A DNA stretch of 64,000 bases from Octopus vulgaris. Its lineage: Eukaryota. A program made the translations under genes and the position numbers. Positions 681 through 61,931 of this stretch are shown one piece after another (within the stretch, counting starts at the first letter, position 1; each line of letters begins with the position of its first letter). Location: contig OX597818.1 in assembly GCA_951406725.2 (NCBI GenBank), positions 83,018,001-83,082,000 on the forward strand, given 5' to 3'. Below the pieces are notes generated by a model, which did not search any database, was not told where the DNA came from, and saw only the letters and a program-made list of their open reading frames with translations.

Positions 681-797
681 ATGATATATAAATATGTATA
701 TATAAATATACATACAAATATATATACATATATACATACATACATACATATATAATATAGATAGATATATTTTGTGTGCCTGAGTATGTGTGTGTGC

Positions 798-850
<53 letters not shown>
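285..850. repeat. Compound microsatellite block (CA)n/(TA)n/(CATA)n/(TG)n
   Basis: Directly visible; explains the HT/IY/CV-rich ORFs. Confidence 0.95.
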
Positions 851-1029
851 TACGTGCTACGTGATGCTACGTGATTTGTTTATCTGAATTTTCTTCACAT
901 TTATTATGTTGCTTTAAAATGGAATCAGATTATCGTATGATGAAATATTTGAATACAAACGCGATGCATGAATTCTAAACGCACACATGCATTTGCACTC
1001 ACTTTATACATATAAATATTTTAAGTTTT

Positions 1030-1205
1030 ACTTTTTTCAGTCATTAGACAGCGGCCATGCTGGGACACCGCCTTGAACCACTTTTACTCGAATGTATCAA
1101 CTCTAGGACCTTTTAAAGCCTGGTATTTATTCTATCGAACATTGAATGCGAAGCGTTAAGTTAACGTAAAAACACCAACACCTGTTGTCAAATGATGATG
1201 GGGAT
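1030..1205 (-). mobile_element. 3' part of SINE group C
   Basis: tttcagtcattagacagcggccatgctgggacaccgccttgaa matches the reverse complement of the tail at 63940-63985 and the copies at 21950 and 52750. Confidence 0.75.
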
Positions 1206-1215
1206 ACACATGCTG

Positions 1216-1273
<58 letters not shown>

Positions 1274-1282
1274 TCACACACA

Positions 1283-1812
1283 CATGGTGCGGTGAATAAA
1301 CTGTCGTCTAAATTACGCAAAAATGAAATTAACACTGACATCTCATTTTAGCAGATATATTTACATAAAAATATCTTGAGATACTAAAGAGTAAATATAC
1401 TCAATAGTATTGCCATTGGCTTCAAGTACGGCCTCCAGACAACTTCGGAATCTCCTAACTTATCCGGGAGGTTTCATTGTTTAAGTTTGTGAATGCTGCC
1501 ATAATCTTTTGCCTTCAGTTCATCTTTGGTGTAACGAGTTTTGTCGATCTCTCGCTCAACTGCGCCCCACACATAAGAATCGAGGGGTTGCAGTCTGGAG
1601 ACTTAGGTGGCTAGATGTAAGGGATAATGTGGTCGCAAGAATTGTCTGGCAGCCATGACTGGGTTTTGCTTGTGTGGCATGGTTCAAAGTCCTGTTGCCA
1701 GACATAGGATTTTCTAGGAGTCAAACTTTTGACCCAGCGCAGCACTACCCCCTCCAGGCACTTGATGTAGGCCTATGTGTTGTCTCTGAGGCCGCGTAGG
1801 AAGATGATGTTC
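1283..1812 (-). mobile_element. Tc1/mariner DD37D (maT-type) transposon relic, C-terminal half plus TIR
   Basis: Minus-strand translation gives AYIKCLEGVVLRWVK..YVWQQD..PCHTS..PPKSPDCNPLDSYVWGAVERE..RRFRSCLEAVLEANGNTIE*, with stops and frameshifts; TIR-like catggtgcggtgaataaactgtcgtc. Confidence 0.85.
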
Positions 1813-2244
1813 ATTAGACGTTTGATTTTTATCACTCTCGGTACATGTCCTCAGATTGACACCCGAACACTCTAAAATGTTCGTATTGGAGCTTCCGTTG
1901 AATATGCCAAGCAGTACAACATGTCGTTTCCAAATTTTTGGCAGAGTGAATTGCATCATGTTGCCGATTTTTTCGAAGACTGGTACTTATTTTATCAATG
2001 ACTGTGTTGACATATTCTTTGATTTTGTAGGACTTTACTGACCATGAAAAGTAAGCTGCACGTTTACATACACAAAAATGCTGCGAAATGCCATTAGGAA
2101 ATAGAGAAAGAATGGAGATTGAACTTGATCTACATTCAACATGACAATGTACGACCACGCATATAACATAAAGGATAAAGAATTTTCTCGAATCACAGAG
2201 ACTCATAGATTCATAAGACCTCTTTCTCAGTTTTTGTGGCGTAT

Positions 2245-2430
2245 GTTTTTCCCACTGACTTGACGCCGGCCCGTCGCAAGTATACTCAATTTTACCAGCT
2301 GAGTAGACTCGAGAAATGTGAAATGAAGTGTTTTGCAAGAGAACACAATGCATCGCCTGATTTCAAGAATCAAAACTGCAACCTTACTATAATGAATCCA
2401 TACCCTAAACTCTAAGGCCCGCACCTTCAC
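2245..2430 (-). mobile_element. tRNA-headed SINE, group B (Meta-domain-like), degraded
   Basis: Reverse complement aligns by eye with the head and central domain of 2989-3245. Confidence 0.7.
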
Positions 2431-2988
2431 TGAGATCATGTATTCTTGGACAGAACTTACGTAATTAGCAGGTTTTAAAAGTTATGTTGATCAAAAGTTA
2501 TGTTGATCTGCAGTGTTAATTAATAGCAACAACAAAACAAGAACACCAGGCATAGAAAACAAAATGAAAATCAAAGAAAATTCAGCCTATGTTAGCACAA
2601 TGCACCACGTAAGATAAAGCTGTCATTGGTATAATGCCCTACGACATCGAAGGTTTTTAAAAATGGATTGAAGTGAATATATATATAAATATCTTATAAA
2701 AATTGTAAGTGTGTATGCGGTGAGAAAGATACAACACCAGCTTAATGTACTAGTGTTTTAATTATCTTTATATTACAATTATGATGATAGCAGATATATA
2801 AATTGATTGGTTGGTTAGTTGATTGATTGAATCTCCTGTCACACTTTACATTACACAGAGAGAAGGTGGAGAGAGAGACAGCAAGAGAGAGAGAGAGATA
2901 TAGAGTAACCGTTAATATAAGAGGCGCAGTATGATTGAAACCGCAAGATTTGGTGATTGGGAATGAGTAAACAGATGCTACATAAACA

Positions 2989-3245
2989 CGTGGAGGTGCG
3001 TGGTTTAGTGGTGAGAGTGTTGGACTCATGATTGTAAGATTATGGTTTCGATTCCTGGACCGGGCGATGAGTTGTGTTCTGGAGTAAAACACCTCATTTC
3101 ATGTTGCTCCAGTCCACTCAGCTAGCAAAAATGAGTATTCCTGTGACTGACCGGCGTCCCGTCCAGGTGGAAGATATACACACCGCAGGAAACCGGAAAC
3201 CGGCCCTTATGAGATTAGCATGGTTCGAGAAGGAAACATTTATTT
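2989..3245 (+). mobile_element. tRNA-headed SINE, group B
   Basis: A box tggtttagtgg, B box gtttcgattcc, central domain tgtgttctggagtaaaacacctcatttcatgttgctccagtccactcagct resembling the Meta-SINE domain, then gaccggcgtcccgtccagg. Confidence 0.8.
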
Positions 3246-3369
3246 TCATCTTACATAAATACATACACGCTCGCGCGGCGGAGACAGTGAGAGAGAAAGA
3301 TTCAGACACAGAGGTGAAGTAGGGAAAGTCAACCTGGAATTGAGGGAGTAATTGACAGTGTAATAAATA

Positions 3370-4445
3370 TTGATTTCACATTTTGGTACGAGCCCTGCAA
3401 TTTCGAGAGAGGGTTTAAGTCGATTACATCGACTGGTACTTATTTTATCAACACCAAAAGGATTAAAGGAAAAAGTCGACCTCTGCGGAAATTGAACCTA
3501 GAATGTAAAGACGAACAAAAACACCCGTTAGGCATTTTTCCCGGTGATCTAACAATTCTACCAGCTCACCGACAGTAGATATTGATTTCAAATTTTGGCA
3601 CAAGGTCAGCAATACCGGAAGAGGGAGCTAAGTCGGTTACATCAACCCAAGTGTTCAACTGGTAATTATTTTATTGACCCAGAAAGGATGAAAGGCAAAG
3701 TCGACTCCGGCGGCATTTGAACTCAGAACATGAAGACAGATGAAATACCGCTAATCATTCCGTCCGGCTTGCTAACGATAGTGCCAGCTCGCTACCTTTC
3801 CTGAACTCAAATAATACCAAGGACGATTTAGTCTTTAATCTTTTCGGAGTCTCTAAATGAAGTATCGGCCAAGTATTGAAATCTACGTAACCGACTTACC
3901 CACACTCCAATCATAATTGCAGGATTTGTGCCAAGGTTTAAAAAATCCAATGGCAGATGTTACGGCTAATCACAAAAATATATTTCCAAAGTTGACCGTC
4001 ATATGATGGGTAATTTTCTAGTTGAAATATTCTGTTCTACACTACGCACAAGGCCCAACATTTTGGGGGAAGGGACCAGTCGATTAGATCGACCCATTAA
4101 GTAACTGCCACTTAATTTATCGATGAAAGGCAAAGTCAACCTCAGCGATATTTGAACTCAGAACGTAATGGCAGACGAAATAACGCTAAGCATTTCGCTC
4201 GGCGTGCTAACGTTTCTTATTTATTGCCCACAAGGGGCTAAACATAGAGGGGACGAACAAGGACAGACAAAGAAATTAAGTCGATTACATCGTCACCAGT
4301 GCGTAACTGGTACTTAATTTATCGATCCCGAAAGGATTAAAGTCCAAGTCAAACTCAGTGGTATTTGAACTCAGAATGTAAAGACAGATGAAATGACGCT
4401 AAGCATTTCACTCGGCGTGCTAACGTTTCTGCCAGCTCGCTGCCT
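3370..4445 (-). mobile_element. Cluster of about 5 co-oriented group A SINEs (Nin/Deu-domain-like core)
   Basis: Repeated ctggtacttaatttatcgaccccgaaaggatgaaaggcaaagtcgacctcggcggaatttgaactcagaac; on the minus strand B box gagttcaaattcc followed by gtcgactttgcctttcatcc. Confidence 0.85.
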
Positions 4446-16349: not shown

Positions 16350-16355
<6 letters not shown>

Positions 16356-16443
16356 TATATACACCCCCACCACAAATATATATATATATATACATATATA
16401 TGTATGTGTGTATGTATGTATGTATATATGTATGTGTGTATGA

Positions 16444-16504
<61 letters not shown>

Positions 16505-16691
16505 TATTTAAACCCATATATGCATGATATATATTTAATGTATCTATACATTATATATAACTGTCAATATATATGTATGTAACTATTTATTTATCTATCT
16601 ACAGTCTTTCCCTCTCTCTTTGTATATATATAATATATATATATATGTACACACACGAACATATACATGCATACGCATCTCTCTCTCTCTC

Positions 16692-16736
<45 letters not shown>

Positions 16737-16922
16737 GAGAGAGAGAGATGCGTATGCATGTATATGTTCGTGTGTGTACATATATATATATATTATATAT
16801 ATACAAAGAGAGAGGGAAAGACTGCTAGATAGATAAATAAATAGTTACATACATATATATTGACAGTTATATATAATGTATAGATACATTAAATATATAT
16901 CATGCATATATGGGTTTAAATA

Positions 16923-16962
<40 letters not shown>

Positions 16963-17042
16963 CATACATACATACATACATACACACATACATATATATA
17001 TATGTATATATATATTTGTGGTGGGGGTGTATAAGGATGCAT
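16350..17042. repeat. ~690-bp near-perfect palindrome (inverted duplication) centred on (TA)n
   Basis: Unique words mirrored: acacccccaccacaaat/atttgtggtgggggtgt, tttaaacccatat/atatgggtttaaa, cagtctttccctctctctttg/caaagagagagggaaagactg, cacacacgaacat/atgttcgtgtgtg. Confidence 0.95.
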
Positions 17043-17719
17043 AGCAAATATGTACAGGAACAGAAACGAAAGAAGAAACGTAAGTTAAAAAAGAATATAG
17101 AAACATTGGAATATCTGAAGACACTTTCTTTGACCATTACCATTATCACCACTGCCATCACCAACCACAACAATAGCAATAACCACCACTGTCTTAATCC
17201 TCCATTTCCACTTCCTTGTCACTATCAACAGAATCCCCATCATCGTCATTATCCTCATCACCAGAACCACAAGAATACAAAACCTGCATGAGCCTAACAT
17301 TAAAAAACAAACAATTAAGCGGGAAAATAACGTATTCAAAATTCCTGTTCTACGTTGTTTTTTTTTCTGTGCGGTTTGTTTTCCCATTATTTTTTTGTCT
17401 GTTTCTTTTAGGGAGCAGGGCTTATTTTTGGAGAAATGGTTCCCTCGGGGCTTTTTGATATTATGGCACCTTGCTGGGGTAATAATGTAATAATAATAGC
17501 AATATCAACAACGTGAATGACTCTAAGGAAAATATGGAAGTACACAACGAGAAGTAAATACACTAGCAGCAATTATAGACAACGAACGACAATATGGAGA
17601 ATATATAAAATACATATAGGAGAGACTGAATAATGAAGGAAGCCAATATGGAGTCGGAGAAGGAGCAGATGAAATACAAAGAAAGGAAGGGAGAAGGAAA
17701 GAGAGTAAGAACAAAGATG

Positions 17720-19404: not shown

Positions 19405-20648
19405 ATATGTATATATATCGATGTAGACATATGTTAAAATATGTGTGCATACAAGCACACACATATATGCCCGTACATGTTTTTTGCCCACATACGCATA
19501 TATTTTCTGGTTTATTTCTGTCATTTCAACTCCCCTGTTTTCGCTTGTTGCCCGGTTTCTCATGTTTTTCAAATATTTAGCTATTCTGGGAGGCCATGCT
19601 GTCACTGCGAGTATTTGTGCACATTTACAATCTCTACGTAACTTTCTTTAAGCAAATACATACACACCCTCACTCACACACACACATACACACACACCCA
19701 CACTCTCTCTCTCACACACACACATAAGCACACACACGTACACACACCGAAATACGTATTTTCCTTGCATTCATTTATTACTCCTTTCAGTTATTGGACT
19801 TCAGCCATACTGGTGGTTTGCTATTTCACCAGAAGTTAATTTATCGGTAACTTTAGCCGAACTGCTAGCTTACGTGGGAGTATACTCGCCCTCACACCAC
19901 CAGTTGTTAAGCAATTGCGTGTTGTTAAAGTAAACGCAGAGACATCAATATGCAAGCATATACATATATGCATATTTAAATAGAGATAGATTATTCGGGC
20001 TAGATTGACGATTTTTATGTCACCCTTTTTTTAAGAACCGCTTGACACAGATGATCACTCAACGACGTTGAAGAGGATAACAAGTAATGTTGTAGTAGAA
20101 TGAAGGCTATGACATTGTGACTGTTGTTCAATGCTCTGTGAACAGTCTAAACAATGTAGGACTAAGATATCCAATTTCACCCATGGTCTTTGGGTGTGAC
20201 TCTTGTGAAGGTTATGTCGTAACGCTCTACATCTTAGTTTATTTAGATATACTTATTTACGTATGTATATTTAGATACACACATATATATATGCATGTTA
20301 CGTATCTTTATATACACATACATATATGTATGTATATAATCTCATTCCGGACGCATGTAAAACGAACCTCCACCAACTATTCTGCCTCTATATCTGTGCA
20401 CATCTTTCAATGCAGTATACGCCATTAGGTCTGCAGATTTATCGTAGGCCTCAAAAGACATTTTGAGATCATAAAGATCAGATCATATCTGCAGCTTATG
20501 GTGGTTCAAATCAGATATGCAATCTATGTGGATGTCTTTTCAATACATTGTTTGATTTAAGGCGTCTCATCAGACACCATGATTGATCTAAGGTGTAAAT
20601 ACAAGGGGTGGCCAGAGTCTGTATAAGGAGTAGACCATCACGTTATAT

Positions 20649-21876
<1,228 letters not shown>

Positions 21877-21929
21877 ATACATACATATGTACATGCACAG
21901 GTACATAGATATATTCGTATATTCTTTCA

Positions 21930-22313: not shown

Positions 22314-22388
22314 CAATATATATATATATTTATACATACCTACATATCTATATAGATGTATTAGATATATGCATATATACATGCATAC

Positions 22389-22815
22389 AAGGCGGCTAGC
22401 AGGCAGAATCCTTAACGATCCGGGCGAAAAGCTTTGTGGTATTTCGTCCGCCGCTGCATTCTGAGTTCAAATTCTGCCAAGGTCGACTTTGCCTTTCATC
22501 ATTTCGGGGTCGATAAATTAAGTACCAGTGACGCACTGGGTTCGATGTAATCGACTTAATCCGTTTGTCTGTACTTGTTTGTCCCCTCTATGTTTAGCCA
22601 CTTGTGGGTTCTAAAGAAATAGAAATAGGTATTTCGTCTATCATTACATTCTGAGTTCTAATTCCGCCGAGGTCGACTTTGCCTTTCATCTTTTCGGGGT
22701 CGATTAAATAAGTACCAGTTACGCACTGGGGTCGATGTAATCGACTTAATCCCTTTGTCCTTGTTTGTCACCTCTATGTTTAGCCCCTTGAAGGCGATAA
22801 AGAAATAAAAATAGA
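22389..22815 (+). mobile_element. Group A SINE head-to-tail dimer (tail type A)
   Basis: One head, two cores and tails; junction gaaatag|gtatttcgtc at about 22628; flanking repeat gatatatgcatat. Confidence 0.85.
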
Positions 22816-25092: not shown

Positions 25093-26145
25093 ATTTTCTA
25101 CTAAACGAACAATACATGAAATTTTGGGTAAGTAAAGTTGCGGAAGTCGATTACAATGACGCAAGTTCTCAACCAGTATTTAAGGATAACAGGCGAAATC
25201 AACCTCAACGAATTTCAAACAGAGAACGTAAACGCAGATGAAATGCCGCATAGCGTCTTGTCCAGCGTGCTAACGATTCTGCCAACTCACCAAGTTAGAA
25301 GCAAGTAATAATTGTTTCTTATTTCTTTATTGCCCACAAGGGGCTAAACATAGAGGAGACAAACAAGGACAGACAAAGGGATTGAGTGGATTACATCGAC
25401 CCCAGTGCGTAACTGTTACTTATTTAATCGACCCCGAAAGGATGAAAAGCAAAGTGGACCTCGGTGGAATTTGAACTCTGAACATAACAGCAGACAAAAT
25501 ACCTATTTCTTTACTACCCACAAGGGGCGAAACACAGAGGACAAACAAAGACAGACAAAGGGATTAAGTCGATTATATCGACCCCAATGCGTAACTGGTA
25601 CTCATTTAATCGACCTCGAACGGATGAAACGCAAAGTTGACCTCGGCGGAATTTGAACTCAGAGCGTAACGGCGGACGAAATACGGCTACGCATTTCGCC
25701 CGGCATGCTAACGTTTCTGCCAGCTCGCTGCCTCGTTTATATTATACGCAATAATCATTTCTATTATACACAAATGGACTGAAATTTTGGGGGAGATGTG
25801 TAGTCGACTACATTGAGCCTTGAAAGGATGAAAAGCAAAGTTGGTGTCGGCGGAATTTTGAACTCAAAACATAAAGACTGATGAATTATGCTAAGTATTT
25901 TCAACGGCCTGCTACCGATACTGCCATTTCACCGCCATATATGCAGGTAATAATGATTTCAGATTATAGCACAAGGTCAACAATTTCGTGGGACTGGGTA
26001 AGTCAGTTACACCAATCCAGTTGCTCAAGTGTTACCTATTTTATCGAACCGGGAAGGATGAAAGGTGAAGTCGAATTGAGCGGAATTTGAACTCAGAACG
26101 TACAGGCAGATAAACGATTCTGTCAGGCAAACGATTCTACCTTAG
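25093..26145 (-). mobile_element. Cluster of about 5 co-oriented group A SINEs including a dimer (25316-25733)
   Basis: Repeated core; probable TSD agaagcgagtaacaat/agaagcaagtaataat around the first copy. Confidence 0.85.
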
Positions 26146-28000
26146 TTGCAGATAATAAAGAAAACGATGCGAATAAGCAAATAAAGAACCTCTCTATAAA
26201 AACAACAAAAGGAAAATGAAAAGGCATTTAAAAAAGTGAAGGCGTTAAATGAAATGTTGACACATACCGTTCGAAGCAGCAGAAGAATCATGAAAGTGCG
26301 CGAAAAACTCCATTAAGATTTTTCTAAATTGCAAGAGTCTGTTTGAAGATCTGAAGAAAGAGTTCTAGTTGCAACGTATACTGTTTTATTGTCTAAAAAA
26401 GATAATGTACGTAATATTGTCTGTGTATTCTTCTTTTGCTGTGTCAACATTTAGAATTCACTTAAATTTCCAAATTTCAGAGAATAATTATATGTTTCCC
26501 CAAAATTCAAATATTTCCTTTTCCAAAATAAATGTACTTTATTGCATTATTTATAATGTATATTAAAAAATATATTCAATATACTCATTTTATTATATTT
26601 TGGTATTAAATAAAATTTAAGAAATAAATATGCAATACACTTTCTAGAAATTTTTATTGAACGTTTTCATGGGGCTGAAATAAATATACACTGGATGTAT
26701 ATATAATTTAAAATATGAAGAAGTACATATATTTTGTTTTTATGAAGAGAACAAAGAAGTCAACACAAGAAAATTTAAATCGTAAAACGATATATAATAT
26801 AAAATTATTCTAGATTCTCTAGGTAAAATATTTGAATATATGAAATAGAAACAAAGCTAAGACTCCGAAGGATTTGATATTTATCATCCCCGAGTACACT
26901 CAACAGAAAAGGGAAGTTTAACGTGAATAATAATATTTATTTCACAAAAAGTCGATATTAAAAATATTTGAAAGGTCAAAGTTCTAAGCTAGAATGCAAA
27001 TGATTGGAATGTGTCATATCTAATATTTTAACCACAGAGTCCAGATAAATATATTGCAGAATTTCACTTAAATCACAAAAGAATTGATTTCAATTCACAT
27101 GTAACATACACACGTACACACATGTACGCACAAACACTCACTCACATATCCACACACAATTGCAGAGGCGTGGACACACGTACTTGCACATACGTATTTA
27201 GTAACATCGGGAAACACCAAATAAATCACTTTTAGCGTTGTACTACGAAGTAGAAAAAAATTTATAACCAAAACATCCTTCAATGGAAAAAGTCGAACGC
27301 TGTCTATGGTTGAAATCGTAATCATAGTAACAATGAATAGAACACATGGTCTGCAGTTGTCCATAAGTCAGGAAACAAGATTTCCATGGGACTACTAACC
27401 AGGACTATATATTTACCTCGAGCATTAAAGAGGCTATTAGTTTTCGGGTAGATGGTCTGAAGAATCGTGAGTATTGTCAAATCCCGTAATAGTTGCGAAA
27501 CCAATTGCAAGTTTCTGGGCAGTTATTTTCTATATCCAGGAATATTTTTTATATAAGTTATTATTCTTTATCTTCCTCTTTATTTATCAACGCGTGTATA
27601 CATCATAGGGGCACTGGGACATGTAGCTCACTGCCTAAATACCAATCACGAGAAATTAGGCTTCTCAAAACCAGAAAAGAGAAAGCTGATTCGAAGGCTA
27701 CAGATCCAGCCCATCAGTAGCACTTTAAAAATCTGTAGAACTTTCCAGGAGTTTATCATTAAAATATATATGAGGATGTCTAGATATACAAGTATATGCA
27801 TGAGAAGACATACATAAAACAAAGCATAAACATCTGCACGTGTACATACATAAAAACCAAAGCTAACTTCTTGTTGGTATTGGATCTAGGTTAGAAAACG
27901 TCCCTTTCTCTATTGACAAGAAATCTTGAAATAAAACTGAATAATGATATACATACATACACACATATATAAGGTTGTATATATATATATATATATATTG

Positions 28001-40283: not shown

Positions 40284-40970
40284 TAGTTTTATTTTTATAG
40301 CGTGCTTTCACTTCACTACCGAGCGCAGCTCTGTGTGCCTTGGGTATGTGCTGTGATTTGTTGTGATGCTCTGATGGTTATTGTATGGAAAGTGTTCTGC
40401 GTAGGATGTGTACAGTGCCTAGTAGTGCAATTTTCTGTATGTTATATGTGTTTGTAAGTCCTGGTGTTTTTGTTATGTATTTGTTTGAATATTTTTTTAT
40501 CATGCCTAATGCACCTACTATGATAGGAATTGTTTCTGTTTTCAGGTTCCACATTCTAGTTACCTCTATTTCCAGGTCTTTGTATTTTGAGAGTTTCTCC
40601 ATTTCTTTTAGAGACACGTTGTCATCTGCCGGTATTGATACATCAATTAGAAAGCATTTTTTTCTTCATAATCTCTGACAACTATATCTGGTCTGTTGGC
40701 CTTAATTTCTCTATCTGTGTGTATCGGCATATCCCAGAGTATGGTTGCTTTCTCGTTTTCTGTGACCTTTTCTGGTGTGTGCCTATACCATCTTTTTTCT
40801 GTTGTTATTCCATAATGTTGGCATAGCTTCCAATGTATGTAGGTTCCAACTCTGTCATGTCTGTGAATATATTCCTTCTTAGCCAGGACTGGGCAGCTAG
40901 AGATATGATTTATTGTTTCTTGTCCATCTCCACATATTCTGCAGTTACTTGTAATATTTCTTTTCATTAC
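40281..40970 (-). mobile_element. 5'-truncated R4/Dong-like non-LTR retrotransposon (CCHC knuckle plus restriction-like endonuclease plus 3' UTR)
   Basis: CRICGDGQETINHISSCPVLAKKEYIHRHDRV..ILWDMPIHTDREIKANRPDIVV, then after a frameshift CFLIDVSIP..EKLSKYKDL..IPIIVGALG; embedded in (TAA)n on both sides. Confidence 0.9.
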
Positions 40971-42625: not shown

Positions 42626-43019
42626 CCACCATTGCTAATACCGTCACCATCACCATAAACATTAACAATGTCAAAAGCGACTATTCTTTTTTCTAAATAA
42701 AATGGTAACTCTTTCGCACAAGTCAGTCGCAAAAGGTTAAATGTTATCAAAATAAAGAAGCGAGTCACGCAAAGCTGCACTTAACAGAAATACCGTCAAA
42801 TCCTCCAGCTTTCTACGACGTTATTGGACGACTTAGAACTGCCTCTCTAGATGTCAAGCTGCAGGCACACTGACTTTTCTCCCTTAATTTTTGCTCCTGT
42901 CACCGCCTCGTATACTTTCAGAAGTGCCCACCAACTAATACCATCACCACCACCATAAACATTAACAAAATCTCAACAGCGACCGTTCTTTTTTGGATAC
43001 AAAGTGGAAACTTCTTCGC
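42626..43019. repeat. Old direct duplication of ~90 bp at ~300-bp spacing
   Basis: ctaatacc.tcacca.caccataaacattaacaa..agcgac..ttcttttt at about 42634 and about 42935. Confidence 0.75.
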
Positions 43020-43020
43020 T

Positions 43021-43793
43021 ATACGTTAATTGCGAAATCACAGGTGATCTGGAACTAAATTCGTTTTCTAAATGTCTTGCTTTGAGAAATGCATTCGGTA
43101 AGATCCGTTTATGCTTGGTAGTATTGACCTTGAAGGTCCCTCCTAGCGTGTGGCATTAATGTGTAATAATGCCCTCTATATAATATAAATAAATATTTTC
43201 AAGTGAAAAAGTTCTCAGATGTTTTCTCTTATGAGGTTTTTCACGCTAACTACCTGTTAATTTCTTGTTAAGATTTCTTTTCAAGATTTTATCCTTAATT
43301 GTTAAATTTGTTCCGATGAAACACGTTTCTCACCGAAATGCATTTCGAAAAAGCCAGCCATTTACATAAATATATGATGAATTAACATTTCCACGTGCTA
43401 CGATGGACTCAACGGTTGTCTGTTTGGTTCCGCCCGGTAGGTCGCTTTTGTTTATTTATGATATGTTTTGAATATGTTTCACTGATGAACAAAAGACGTA
43501 GATGATACGTTAATTGCGAAAACACAGGTGATCTGGAACTAAATTAATTTTGTAAATGTCTTGCTTTGAGAAATGCATTCGGTAAGATCCGTTTATGTTT
43601 GGTAGTATTGACCTTGAATGTCCCTCCTAGCGTGTGGCATTAATGTGTAATAATGCCCTCTATATAATATAAATAAATATTTTCAAGTGAAAAAGTTTTC
43701 AGATTTTTTCTCTTATGAGGTTTTTCACGCTAACTACCTGATAATTTTTTGTTAAGATTTCTTTTCAACATTTTATCTTTAATTGTTAAATTT
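43021..43793 (+). mobile_element. Non-coding partial-tandem element (289-bp direct repeats, period 484 bp) with a hammerhead ribozyme; retrozyme-like or Penelope pLTR-like
   Basis: 43021-43309 vs 43505-43793 differ by about 12 substitutions counted by eye; ends at a TA-rich tract. Confidence 0.8.
43476..43539 (+). ncRNA. Type-I hammerhead ribozyme, intact catalytic core, predicted cleavage after C43533
   Basis: gtttca CTGATGA a-caa..acgta gatga tacgt..ttg-c GAAA acac ag gtga TC tggaac; helix I gtttca/tggaac. The upstream half-copy has the perfect helix III tcac/gtga with its site at C43049. Confidence 0.8.
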
Positions 43794-44256
43794 ATATTTA
43801 TATATATATATATAAATGTATGTATGAGATGCTAGAGAAGAAAAAGAATGAAAAGAAAGCAGAAAGCAGAAAGCAATACAATGTTGAAAAGGGGTATACA
43901 GTGTTTTAACCGAAAAAAAACTTCTTTCTATTTCATTCAAACTCGATGTTTGAAGTTAACGAGTTAACACGCAGAATTACATTAAACATTTTACATAGAT
44001 ATCCGGTATTAAACATCAGCAAAGGATGTAAGTTCGATTGCAATCAGATGCGAGATACAACTTATGTAATGAAGAATAATGTAAATATGCTAATTAACCG
44101 AGTAAACGTTCGTAAACTTGATGAGCATTAATTGCTAAAGAGATATTTATGATAATGAAAACGGAGGAAGACGAAAAGAGAGAGGAGGAGAAGTGGAAGG
44201 AGAAAAGAAAAAAATTTTGATGTTCATGATGATTGTGATAATGGTGATGATGATGT

Positions 44257-48044: not shown

Positions 48045-48682
48045 AGTCGTAGTCACGACGCGTAAATTGCTTAGTGGTATTTCATCTGTATAAGGCGGCG
48101 AGCTGGCAGAAAGGTTAGCACGCCGAGCGAAATGCGTAGCTGTATTTCGTCTGTCGTTACGTTGTGAGTTCAAATTCTGCCGAGGTAAACTTTGCCATTC
48201 ATCCTTTCGGGGTCGATAAATTAAGTACCAGTTACGCATTGGGGTCGATGTAATCGACTTAATACCTATGTCTGTCCTTGTTTGTCCTCTCTATGTTTAG
48301 CCCTTTGTGGGTAATAAAGAAATAGGTATTTCGTCTGCCGTTACGTTCTGAGTTCAAATTCCGCCGAGATCGACTTTGCCTTTCATCCGTTCGGGGTCGA
48401 TCAAATAAATACCAGTTACGCACTGGGATCGACGTAATCGACTTAATCCGTTTATCTGTCCTTGTTAGTCCCCTCTGTGTTTAGCACCTTGTGGGTAGTA
48501 ACGAAATTGGTATTTCATCCGTGTTTCCGTTCTCTGTTCAAATCCGCCGGTGGTCTACTCTTGCCTTTCATCACTTTCAGAGTCGATAAAATAAGTGCCT
48601 GATGATGACTGGAGTCGATGTAATCGATTTAACTCCTTTCGACGAAATTGCTGGCCTTGTGCCAGTATTTCCCGTTAGAAAA
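48045..48682 (+). mobile_element. Group A SINE dimer (48092-48508) nested in an older group A SINE
   Basis: Duplication ggtatttcatc.gt at 48076 and 48509; internal junction gaaatag|gtatttcgtc at 48325. Confidence 0.85.
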
Positions 48683-53795: not shown

Positions 53796-54026
53796 TATTT
53801 CTTTACTACCCACAAGGGGATAAACACAGAGGGGACAAACAAGGACAGACAAAGAGATTAAGTCGTTTACATCGACTCCATTGCGTAACTGGTACTTAAT
53901 TTCTCGACCCCGAAAGGATGAAAGGCAAAGTCGACCTTGGTGGAATTTGAACTTGCAGCGTAAAAACAGACGAAATAAGGCTAGTTTTTCGCCCGGCGTG
54001 CTAACGTTTCTGCCAGCTCGCCGCCT
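53796..54026 (-). mobile_element. Full-length group A SINE (tail A) with TSD taagtata
   Basis: taagtata flanks both ends (about 53788 and about 54027); complete head gccagctcgccgcc. Confidence 0.9.
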
Positions 54027-58561: not shown

Positions 58562-59077
58562 GTTGATATATTATATATATATATATTGGAAGGTTTGGAG
58601 ATGATGTACAGGTATTATATATTAGAAGAAATGAGGTAATCAGATCGGATGGTTCATATTTACAGATATTTATTTATATATTTTATTTTTTACATATATA
58701 TATCATATCATTCAGATCATTAGCGCTTTCTCCCATTCTAGTGGGGTTTTCAAATCAAAATAATTCCTTTGTGGGGAATTTTAATCATTTTATAGAGTTT
58801 CGTAGTGGTGGGGAGGAACAAGACAGCACAAGAGGGTGAAGTGGATGAGGAGGAAGTAAGAAAGAGAACATGTGTGTATGTGTGTGTGTGTGTCTGTGTG
58901 TGTGTGTCTGTGTGTGTGTGTGTGTGTGTGTGCGTTTGTATCTGAGGCTAAAGAGGAAGAGGGGAAGGGAGAGGGAAGAAGAAGAAGGAGTTCCTTTGGC
59001 CTGCTGGACCCCCAAAGGAGTTCTAAGAATTTTATCTTTCGTCCATTTTAGTGTCACTGAGTGTGTGTTGGTGTGTT

Positions 59078-61308: not shown

Positions 61309-61860
61309 ACGGACACACAGAGACACACACACACACCTCCACAAAACGATCATACAAAGTAGAAAGAGTTCTTAGACACCAAATGGCATTTGACCATCCT
61401 CAAAATCATAAAAGGTGCAATTTATGGCCTGCCTACCCACCACAACACACTCAGTGACACTAAAGTGGACAAAAGCTAAAATTCTTAGAACTCCCTTGGG
61501 GGTCTAGTAGGCCAAAGGAAATCCTTCTTCTTCCCTCTCCCTTCCCCCTTTCTCTTTAGCCTCAGATACAAACGCACACACACACACACACACGCACATA
61601 TGTTCTCTCTCTTACTTCCTCCTCATCCACTTCACCCTCTTGTGCTGTCTTGTTCCTCCCCACCACTACGAAACTCTATAAAATGATTAAAATTCTCCAC
61701 AAAGGAATTATTTTGATTTGAAAACCCCACTAGAATGGGAGAAAGCGCTAATGATCTGAATGATATGATCTGAATGATATGATATATATATGTAAAAAAT
61801 GTAATATATAAATAAATATCTGTAAATATGAACCATCCGATCTTCTGATTACCTCATTTC

Positions 61861-61931
<71 letters not shown>

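Follow-up and report, generated by a model that had tools for sequence, protein, structure and literature searches.

A candidate non-autonomous, Penelope-derived element with a type I hammerhead motif in the genome of Octopus vulgaris

In the genome of Octopus vulgaris, an insertion at positions 43021..43793 of the window considered here (the whole stretch of DNA that was analysed, 64 kb in length) consists of 1.6 copies of a non-coding 484-nt unit that carries a type I hammerhead motif and belongs to a multi-copy family. We think it fairly probable that this is a non-autonomous Penelope-derived unit, of the type of the non-LTR retrozymes, which was copied 1.6 times by a Penelope reverse transcriptase (RT). 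The parts of the insertion and its target are as follows.

43021..43793, plus strand: whole insertion, 1.6 copies of the non-coding 484-nt unit (repeat comparison)
43021..43309, plus strand: upstream repeat, 5'-truncated, its end being the 3' terminus of the family (drop in contig depth after 43307)
43021..43055, plus strand: 3' half of a hammerhead, with the 3' strand of helix II, GAAA, a near-palindromic helix III, AUC and the 3' strand of helix I (sequence)
43050..43533, plus strand: putative 484-nt monomer between the two sites, predicted to be highly self-paired (folding against shuffles)
43310..43504, plus strand: middle segment, present once at the locus, multi-copy in the runs and far rarer there than the repeat part (contig depth)
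43319..43393, minus strand: sequence complementary to the 59-67 nt that follow the cleavage site, or an old inverted copy of them, predicted to form a long stem of the monomer (alignment against shuffles)
43423..43432, plus strand: short segment predicted to pair with the 3' strand of helix I (pair probability 0.56-0.95)
43476..43539, plus strand: complete type I hammerhead motif, cleavage residue C43533 (strict descriptor, pair listing, relatives)
43505..43793, plus strand: downstream repeat, comprising the complete ribozyme's 3' half and a 3' terminal sequence of 260 nt (repeat comparison)
43794..43814, no strand assigned: (TA)n-rich target tract (sequence)

The preliminary description of this DNA, made from the letters alone, had reported two 289-bp direct repeats 484 bp apart, without an ORF and ending at a TA tract, and all of this holds. 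The repeats (43021-43309 and 43505-43793) measure 289 nt each at a spacing of 484 and differ at 12 positions (95.8 % identity), the longest stop-free stretch within the element is 45 codons, and the sequence is TA-rich from 43794. No ORF of at least 100 codons lies between 41492 and 44557, no RT or GIY-YIG Pfam family was matched by 35 selected frames of the window, and a search of the rest of the window gave no further copy of the unit. The G+C content of the unit is 33-35 % (34.5 % for the monomer at 43050..43533), under the 45 % limit used for retrozymes. A target-site duplication was not found, the longest match between the flanks of the element being 4 nt. At its 5' end the element interrupts an older repeat, which forms a pair (42635-42717 and 42935-43019, 300 nt apart, 81 % identity) and is itself multi-copy in the sequencing runs; its second copy is cut off by the element and does not resume downstream.

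The complete hammerhead had been recognized at the junction of the two units, and a closer look bears this out. Its core consists of CUGAUGA at 43482-88, GAAA at 43518-21 and AUC with the C at 43533; helix I (43476-81/43534-39) has six of six pairs, one of them of the G.U type, and helix II (43489-43517) comprises an A.C at its base (10.1-11.1), three pairs, an internal loop and five pairs. Helix III has an A.A mismatch at 15.2-16.2, so that both flaws listed earlier, at the base of helix II and in helix III, are real. The upstream copy is indeed truncated inside the ribozyme, retaining a half motif with C at 43049 and without CUGANGA, in which the 15.2-16.2 pair is intact. That intact form is a 12-nt near-palindrome of five pairs around a 2-nt centre, which does not agree with the very short helix III first described. 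A strict hammerhead descriptor gave one match in the window, as compared with two matches in 30 shuffled windows. Scoring against Rfam brought up no hammerhead family, with 0 matches in the window reaching the gathering score and no hammerhead among the seven matches at E<=10 around the locus, and pattern scans of metagenome contigs, viral contigs and prokaryote genomes returned 0 loci. By itself the motif folds no better than shuffles (z -0.9).

Contigs assembled from sequencing runs place the insertion within a family. Twenty of the 24 listed runs (five organism codes, 12 studies) contain part of the element, none of them as much as half of its words, and contigs from four of those runs were placed on 42930-43545 at likeness 80; this reference contains the unit once, and tandem read-through therefore cannot appear in it as a joint. 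From these placements 24 of 269 loose ends, 40 of 146 differences and 32 of 2156 pieces were listed. In two DNA-like runs, 1159 and 946 contigs match the element. None of the runs that contain the element is listed as RNA; two others, X8 and X11, with 17 and 13 contigs, are RNA only by guess, and the contigs say nothing on transcription, ends or circles. No position at which many molecules start or stop stood out, a feature that contigs could not reveal in any case. Summed contig depth rises from 5-22 in the bin that flanks the element upstream to approximately 1,800-400,000 over 43035-43307, and then drops about 15-fold after 43307, a point equal to the 3' end of the element. Over the middle it is 771-3,855, against approximately 20-46 for single-locus contigs, figures that are not copy numbers; the middle thus lies tens to approximately 100 times above single-locus depth and is roughly flat up to the 43309/43310 junction, while the repeat part is 10-100 times deeper again. 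As these depths show, the 3' part of the family is very abundant and its middle much rarer, with an abrupt drop where the 3' end of the element lies. The view that the element is multi-copy is upheld by the number of contigs as well as by a middle well above single-locus depth. No contig spans the whole placed stretch (42930-43545). One contig of run X3 (record 16) crosses the 5' junction and differs at five of 147 letters; the organism of that run therefore shares the insertion. Another (record 22) crosses the 43309/43310 junction with 22 aligned letters on the left, below the 31-letter rule, and differs from the window further left, which weakly hints at a second locus. Several relatives stop at 43177-43196 and continue as TA or GATA repeats, possibly marking a second 3' end or an internal break point of the family. 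Loose ends at 43276 were considered as a Penelope-type tail of 30-40 bp and look like an indel variant instead.

The same contigs bear on whether the motif has been maintained. In relatives from run X8, among the 24 of 269 loose ends listed, the N7 letter is another one and the base of helix II is G-C; one X8 relative has a different but paired helix II, its core C and U lying outside the 30 letters listed. The core is kept, and helix II is changed yet still paired, in diverged relatives. That a hammerhead-like motif is present by chance in what is no more than a local DNA duplication is very improbable and largely refuted: the lack of an Rfam score, the unremarkable folding of the motif alone and the lack of a second copy in the window would suit it, but the descriptor gives only two matches in 30 shuffled windows and in each DNA-like run roughly a thousand contigs are related to the element, core and pairing being preserved.

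Whether the copy in the window could still work is a separate matter. An A-to-G change at 10.1 does not occur among the 40 of 146 differences listed. Record 31 of run X8 covers 43489 (A10.1) with two differences, both at other positions, and the A at 10.1 is therefore not private decay; record 15 of run X11 covers the whole ribozyme with seven differences, six of which are listed at other positions, and this means that one or both of the ribozyme mismatches are shared. Such sharing could reflect an orthologous locus or a trait of a subfamily. In minimal hammerheads a G-C at 10.1-11.1 has been described as highly conserved; ribozymes of the Hydra clade of Penelope-like elements often have U.U or U.C there (PMC8557442), and A.C thus need not be fatal. 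The copy at 43021..43793, a few percent diverged, is probably weak or dead.

Predicted folding of the entire unit is stronger than that of its motif. The 484-nt unit folds better than all shuffles (z -4.6, 0/100), and a second test gave z -3.7 for the linear and -5.3 for the circular form, with 0/40 shuffles as good in each of four folds; separate parts of the unit fold no better than shuffles. The strong predicted self-pairing is due to the segment at 43319-43393, which complements the 5' part of the unit over 55/63 and 48/59 aligned letters, with gaps, a score that 0/300 shuffles reach. This complement extends to about 9 nt from the 43309/43310 junction, and it ends exactly at the cleavage site, even if the comparison is extended upstream. 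Either selection has maintained a stem here, or the segment is an old Penelope-type inverted copy whose cDNA stopped at a cut 5' end; the match is short in its terminal part, for which reason its ending at the site is taken as a lead only. No specific role is assigned to the segment at 43423-43432, because helix I is equally rare when the middle is shuffled, and a viroid-like self-blocking of the ribozyme in the circle was likewise set aside, the probability of helix I being <=0.01 in 38/40 shuffled-middle controls too.

For cleavage itself, predictions are less favourable. The active ribozyme fold is predicted to lie 6.7 kcal/mol above the ensemble alone and 9.5-21 kcal/mol above it in context. 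The helix III strand is predicted to pair with itself at -11.2 kcal/mol when intact, against -7.4 when mismatched, and this strong self-pairing of the intact form would fit action as a dimer. A paper of 2017 reportedly dealt with dimer-cleaving variants of Penelope hammerheads. It had been claimed that two cleavage sites bound a 484-nt monomer which is released from the tandem. The sites are there (43049 and 43533, 484 nt apart), but the locus has one complete ribozyme, so that release at both sites would need one enzyme strand acting twice, and predicted folds do not favour this: in co-folds the enzyme strand formed helix I with neither half, and a single strand cutting both sites was rejected on that ground.

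The window contains a second, older, ORF-less partial tandem with a hammerhead, at 21296-21892 on the minus strand, with a unit of about 475 nt. Its direct repeats of about 120 nt agree at 96/119 aligned letters (81 %; 0/300 shuffles), its Hydra-like hammerhead has a core at 21504, a G-C at the base of helix II, a palindromic helix III and a G as the cleavage residue, at 21446, and it has a TA tract at its 3' end and no ORF above 45 codons on its own strand. It folds no better than shuffles. Similarity between the two elements, which are AT-rich, gave a score that one of 100 shuffles reached and is not relied on. That two units without an ORF agree in size speaks for defined short elements rather than random truncation, with n=2.

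The window as a whole is microsatellite-rich animal DNA. At 27457-27515, on the plus strand, a CUGAAGA...GAAA core with poor helices is a decayed hammerhead or a chance match. A 95-codon frame between TTA/TAA tracts (40381-40665, minus strand) belongs to a retroelement fragment. It matches a protein of Octopus bimaculoides at 86 % identity, whereas the next organism-named match is at 59 %, and this agrees with an Octopus host; it had no match in Pfam, and it looks like the endonuclease end of an R4/Dong-type retroelement. A remnant of a mariner-type transposase (PF01359; 59835-60755, plus strand), at 79 % to its best relative, sits between an inverted pair (58566-59076 and 61435-61923, 83 %). 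An abundant repeat family of head-to-tail units of about 184 nt occurs at 22387-22814, 25316-25736, 48078-48639 and 53796-54026, and a search of it found no hammerhead core. Large self-inverted stretches at 16350-17043 and 20645-21168 (88 % and 84 % identity) are transposon-like.

Among known systems, the non-LTR retrozymes of animals are alike in having a type I hammerhead in a short, non-coding, low-GC, self-paired and multi-copy unit, and an origin from, and mobilisation by, Penelope elements have been proposed for them (PMC7229834; 10.64898/2026.07.22.740005). The octopus unit of 484 nt is longer than the 170-400 nt of one account (PMC7229834) and lies inside the 51-972 bp of another (10.64898/2026.07.22.740005). 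It differs from retrozymes in its long, interrupted helix II. With only 1.6 units, and one complete ribozyme plus a half motif where an 'active' retrozyme has two complete ones, the locus falls into the 'monomer' class and not the 'active' one (10.64898/2026.07.22.740005). No cephalopod is named in the searched portions of these two texts.

The preliminary description had assigned the hammerhead to the minimal metazoan type; by helix III, 3' position and (TA)n target it is closer to the Hydra-clade type. Hammerheads of that clade have a palindromic helix III with a 0-3 nt centre, lie near the 3' end and go with a (TA)n target (PMC8557442), and one Hydra-clade family is listed for O. bimaculoides (PMC8557442). 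Shared with the clade are a near-palindromic helix III, a 3' ribozyme, tolerance of a non-standard pair at the base of helix II, the (TA)n target, partial tandems and inverted copies, whereas the octopus element has no ORF, is unlike the listed Hydra-1_Obim ribozyme in sequence, has a helix III one pair longer and has a helix II interrupted by an internal loop (PMC8557442). As judged from sequence, the resemblance appears limited to the shape of the ribozyme, its 3' position and the target. With the minimal hammerheads of Penelope/Poseidon and Neptune pLTRs the motif shares type I topology, an enlarged helix II, a palindromic helix III region and probable action as a dimer; it differs from them in a helix III of 4-5 pairs, a helix I of six pairs and the lack of an extra nucleotide before 10.1 (PMC4209133). 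Chlamys derivatives such as MRC1 are likewise ORF-less and of the Penelope type, form pLTRs and share their 3' end with autonomous families, but they are algal and without canonical hammerheads (PMC8557442). A Naiad origin was discarded, the 3' ends of octopus Naiad elements being unlike the element by eye and motif searches blank. In O. vulgaris, Penelope-like elements make up 6.83 % of the genome in 190 families, 30 Penelope families have recently been active, and the portion of this repeat text that was available does not mention ribozymes (PMC13282606). Our survey of the literature on octopus and cephalopod hammerheads, Penelope elements and retrozymes did not find the family described; Repbase, Dfam, the octopus repeat library or supplements to papers may hold it.

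Under the preferred reading, a Penelope-derived unit, the insertion would have arisen as follows. A source copy would be transcribed, and its type I hammerhead could cut after AUC; given the near-palindromic helix III it would most likely act as a dimer, and the cut monomers may then ligate into circles. An autonomous Penelope-like element, most likely a Hydra-like one, would supply the RT/GIY-YIG protein that nicks (TA)n, and reverse transcription, by analogy with a Poseidon element, would start internally, about 260 nt downstream of the site, at 43793. The RT would copy 484 + 289 nt and cross the cleavage junction twice, in which case the template would be a ligated circle or an uncut multimer and not a cut linear monomer. 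Internal initiation downstream of the ribozyme has been demonstrated for the Poseidon element; in vitro, cleavage was unnecessary for its insertion, no reads ended at the site and uncut RNA was the dominant substrate (PMC11167929). Given insertion without cleavage there, and given that 8/9 hammerhead dimers of Xenopus are without cleavage, circles are something that we infer. Four of five joints in the contigs are strand inversions, at a likeness of 80 at which joints can also arise from repeats, and strand inversions are a signature of Penelope (PMC8557442). The earlier proposal of mobilisation by Penelope thus holds in part, on the strength of the partial tandem, the inversions, the TA target, the lack of a target-site duplication and the non-coding, structured unit.

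One alternative accepts this classification and contests the cleavage, circle and template steps: in this non-autonomous Penelope derivative the ribozyme would be a passenger, inert or gated by protein, and the element would move as uncut read-through tandem RNA, without circles. We give this a substantial chance, albeit less than an even one. The weak predicted active fold, the presence of A10.1 in at least one other contig and the dominance of uncut RNA as in vitro substrate of the Poseidon element (PMC11167929) speak for a passenger, but diverged relatives preserve the core and the pairing of the helices, the inverted segment has its end precisely at the cleavage site, and retrozymes of mussel and coral do cleave and form circles (PMC7229834).

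The main rival to the classification itself, to which we give a slightly smaller chance, is a solo pLTR tandem. Here re-initiation at the same 3' site would have produced two 5'-truncated 3' ends, 289 and 484 nt long, from an autonomous element of the Hydra or Neptune type, with no independent unit and a middle that is simply 3' UTR. The locus by itself does not separate this from the preferred reading, and neither a full second locus nor an autonomous partner came up in the window and the contigs. Each repeat does stop where the family has its 3' terminus, depth is by far the greatest close to that terminus, as expected of truncated 3' ends of longer elements, Hydra consensus sequences have a 3' UTR of similar size before the ribozyme, and O. 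vulgaris has its 30 recently active Penelope families (PMC13282606). Against this stand the flat, untapered depth of the middle, a self-complement that comes so near the junction, the other ORF-less tandem of the window with its comparable unit length and, weakly, the X3 contig that has another sequence to the left of this junction; moreover, five short motifs of the element have no exact match in published Naiad, Chlamys and Hydra consensus files, in which line breaks can hide a match.

A bolder extension of the preferred, Penelope-derived reading would be that octopus genomes harbour several ORF-less, circular-RNA retroelements of about 480 nt that ride on Hydra-clade Penelope-like elements, and that the inverted segment is the fossil cDNA of a ribozyme-cut RNA. 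We regard this as improbable; if true, that fossil would be genomic evidence of hammerhead cleavage in the Penelope cycle in vivo, which the one in vitro study was unable to show. Since the class is already described, the gain lies in range and mechanism and not in a new kind of system. The element would extend animal retrozymes to cephalopods, with Hydra as the candidate partner clade, a partner left open for invertebrates in the available text of the 2026 survey (10.64898/2026.07.22.740005), and its many copies offer a direct test of whether hammerhead cleavage and circles serve the mobilisation of Penelope elements.
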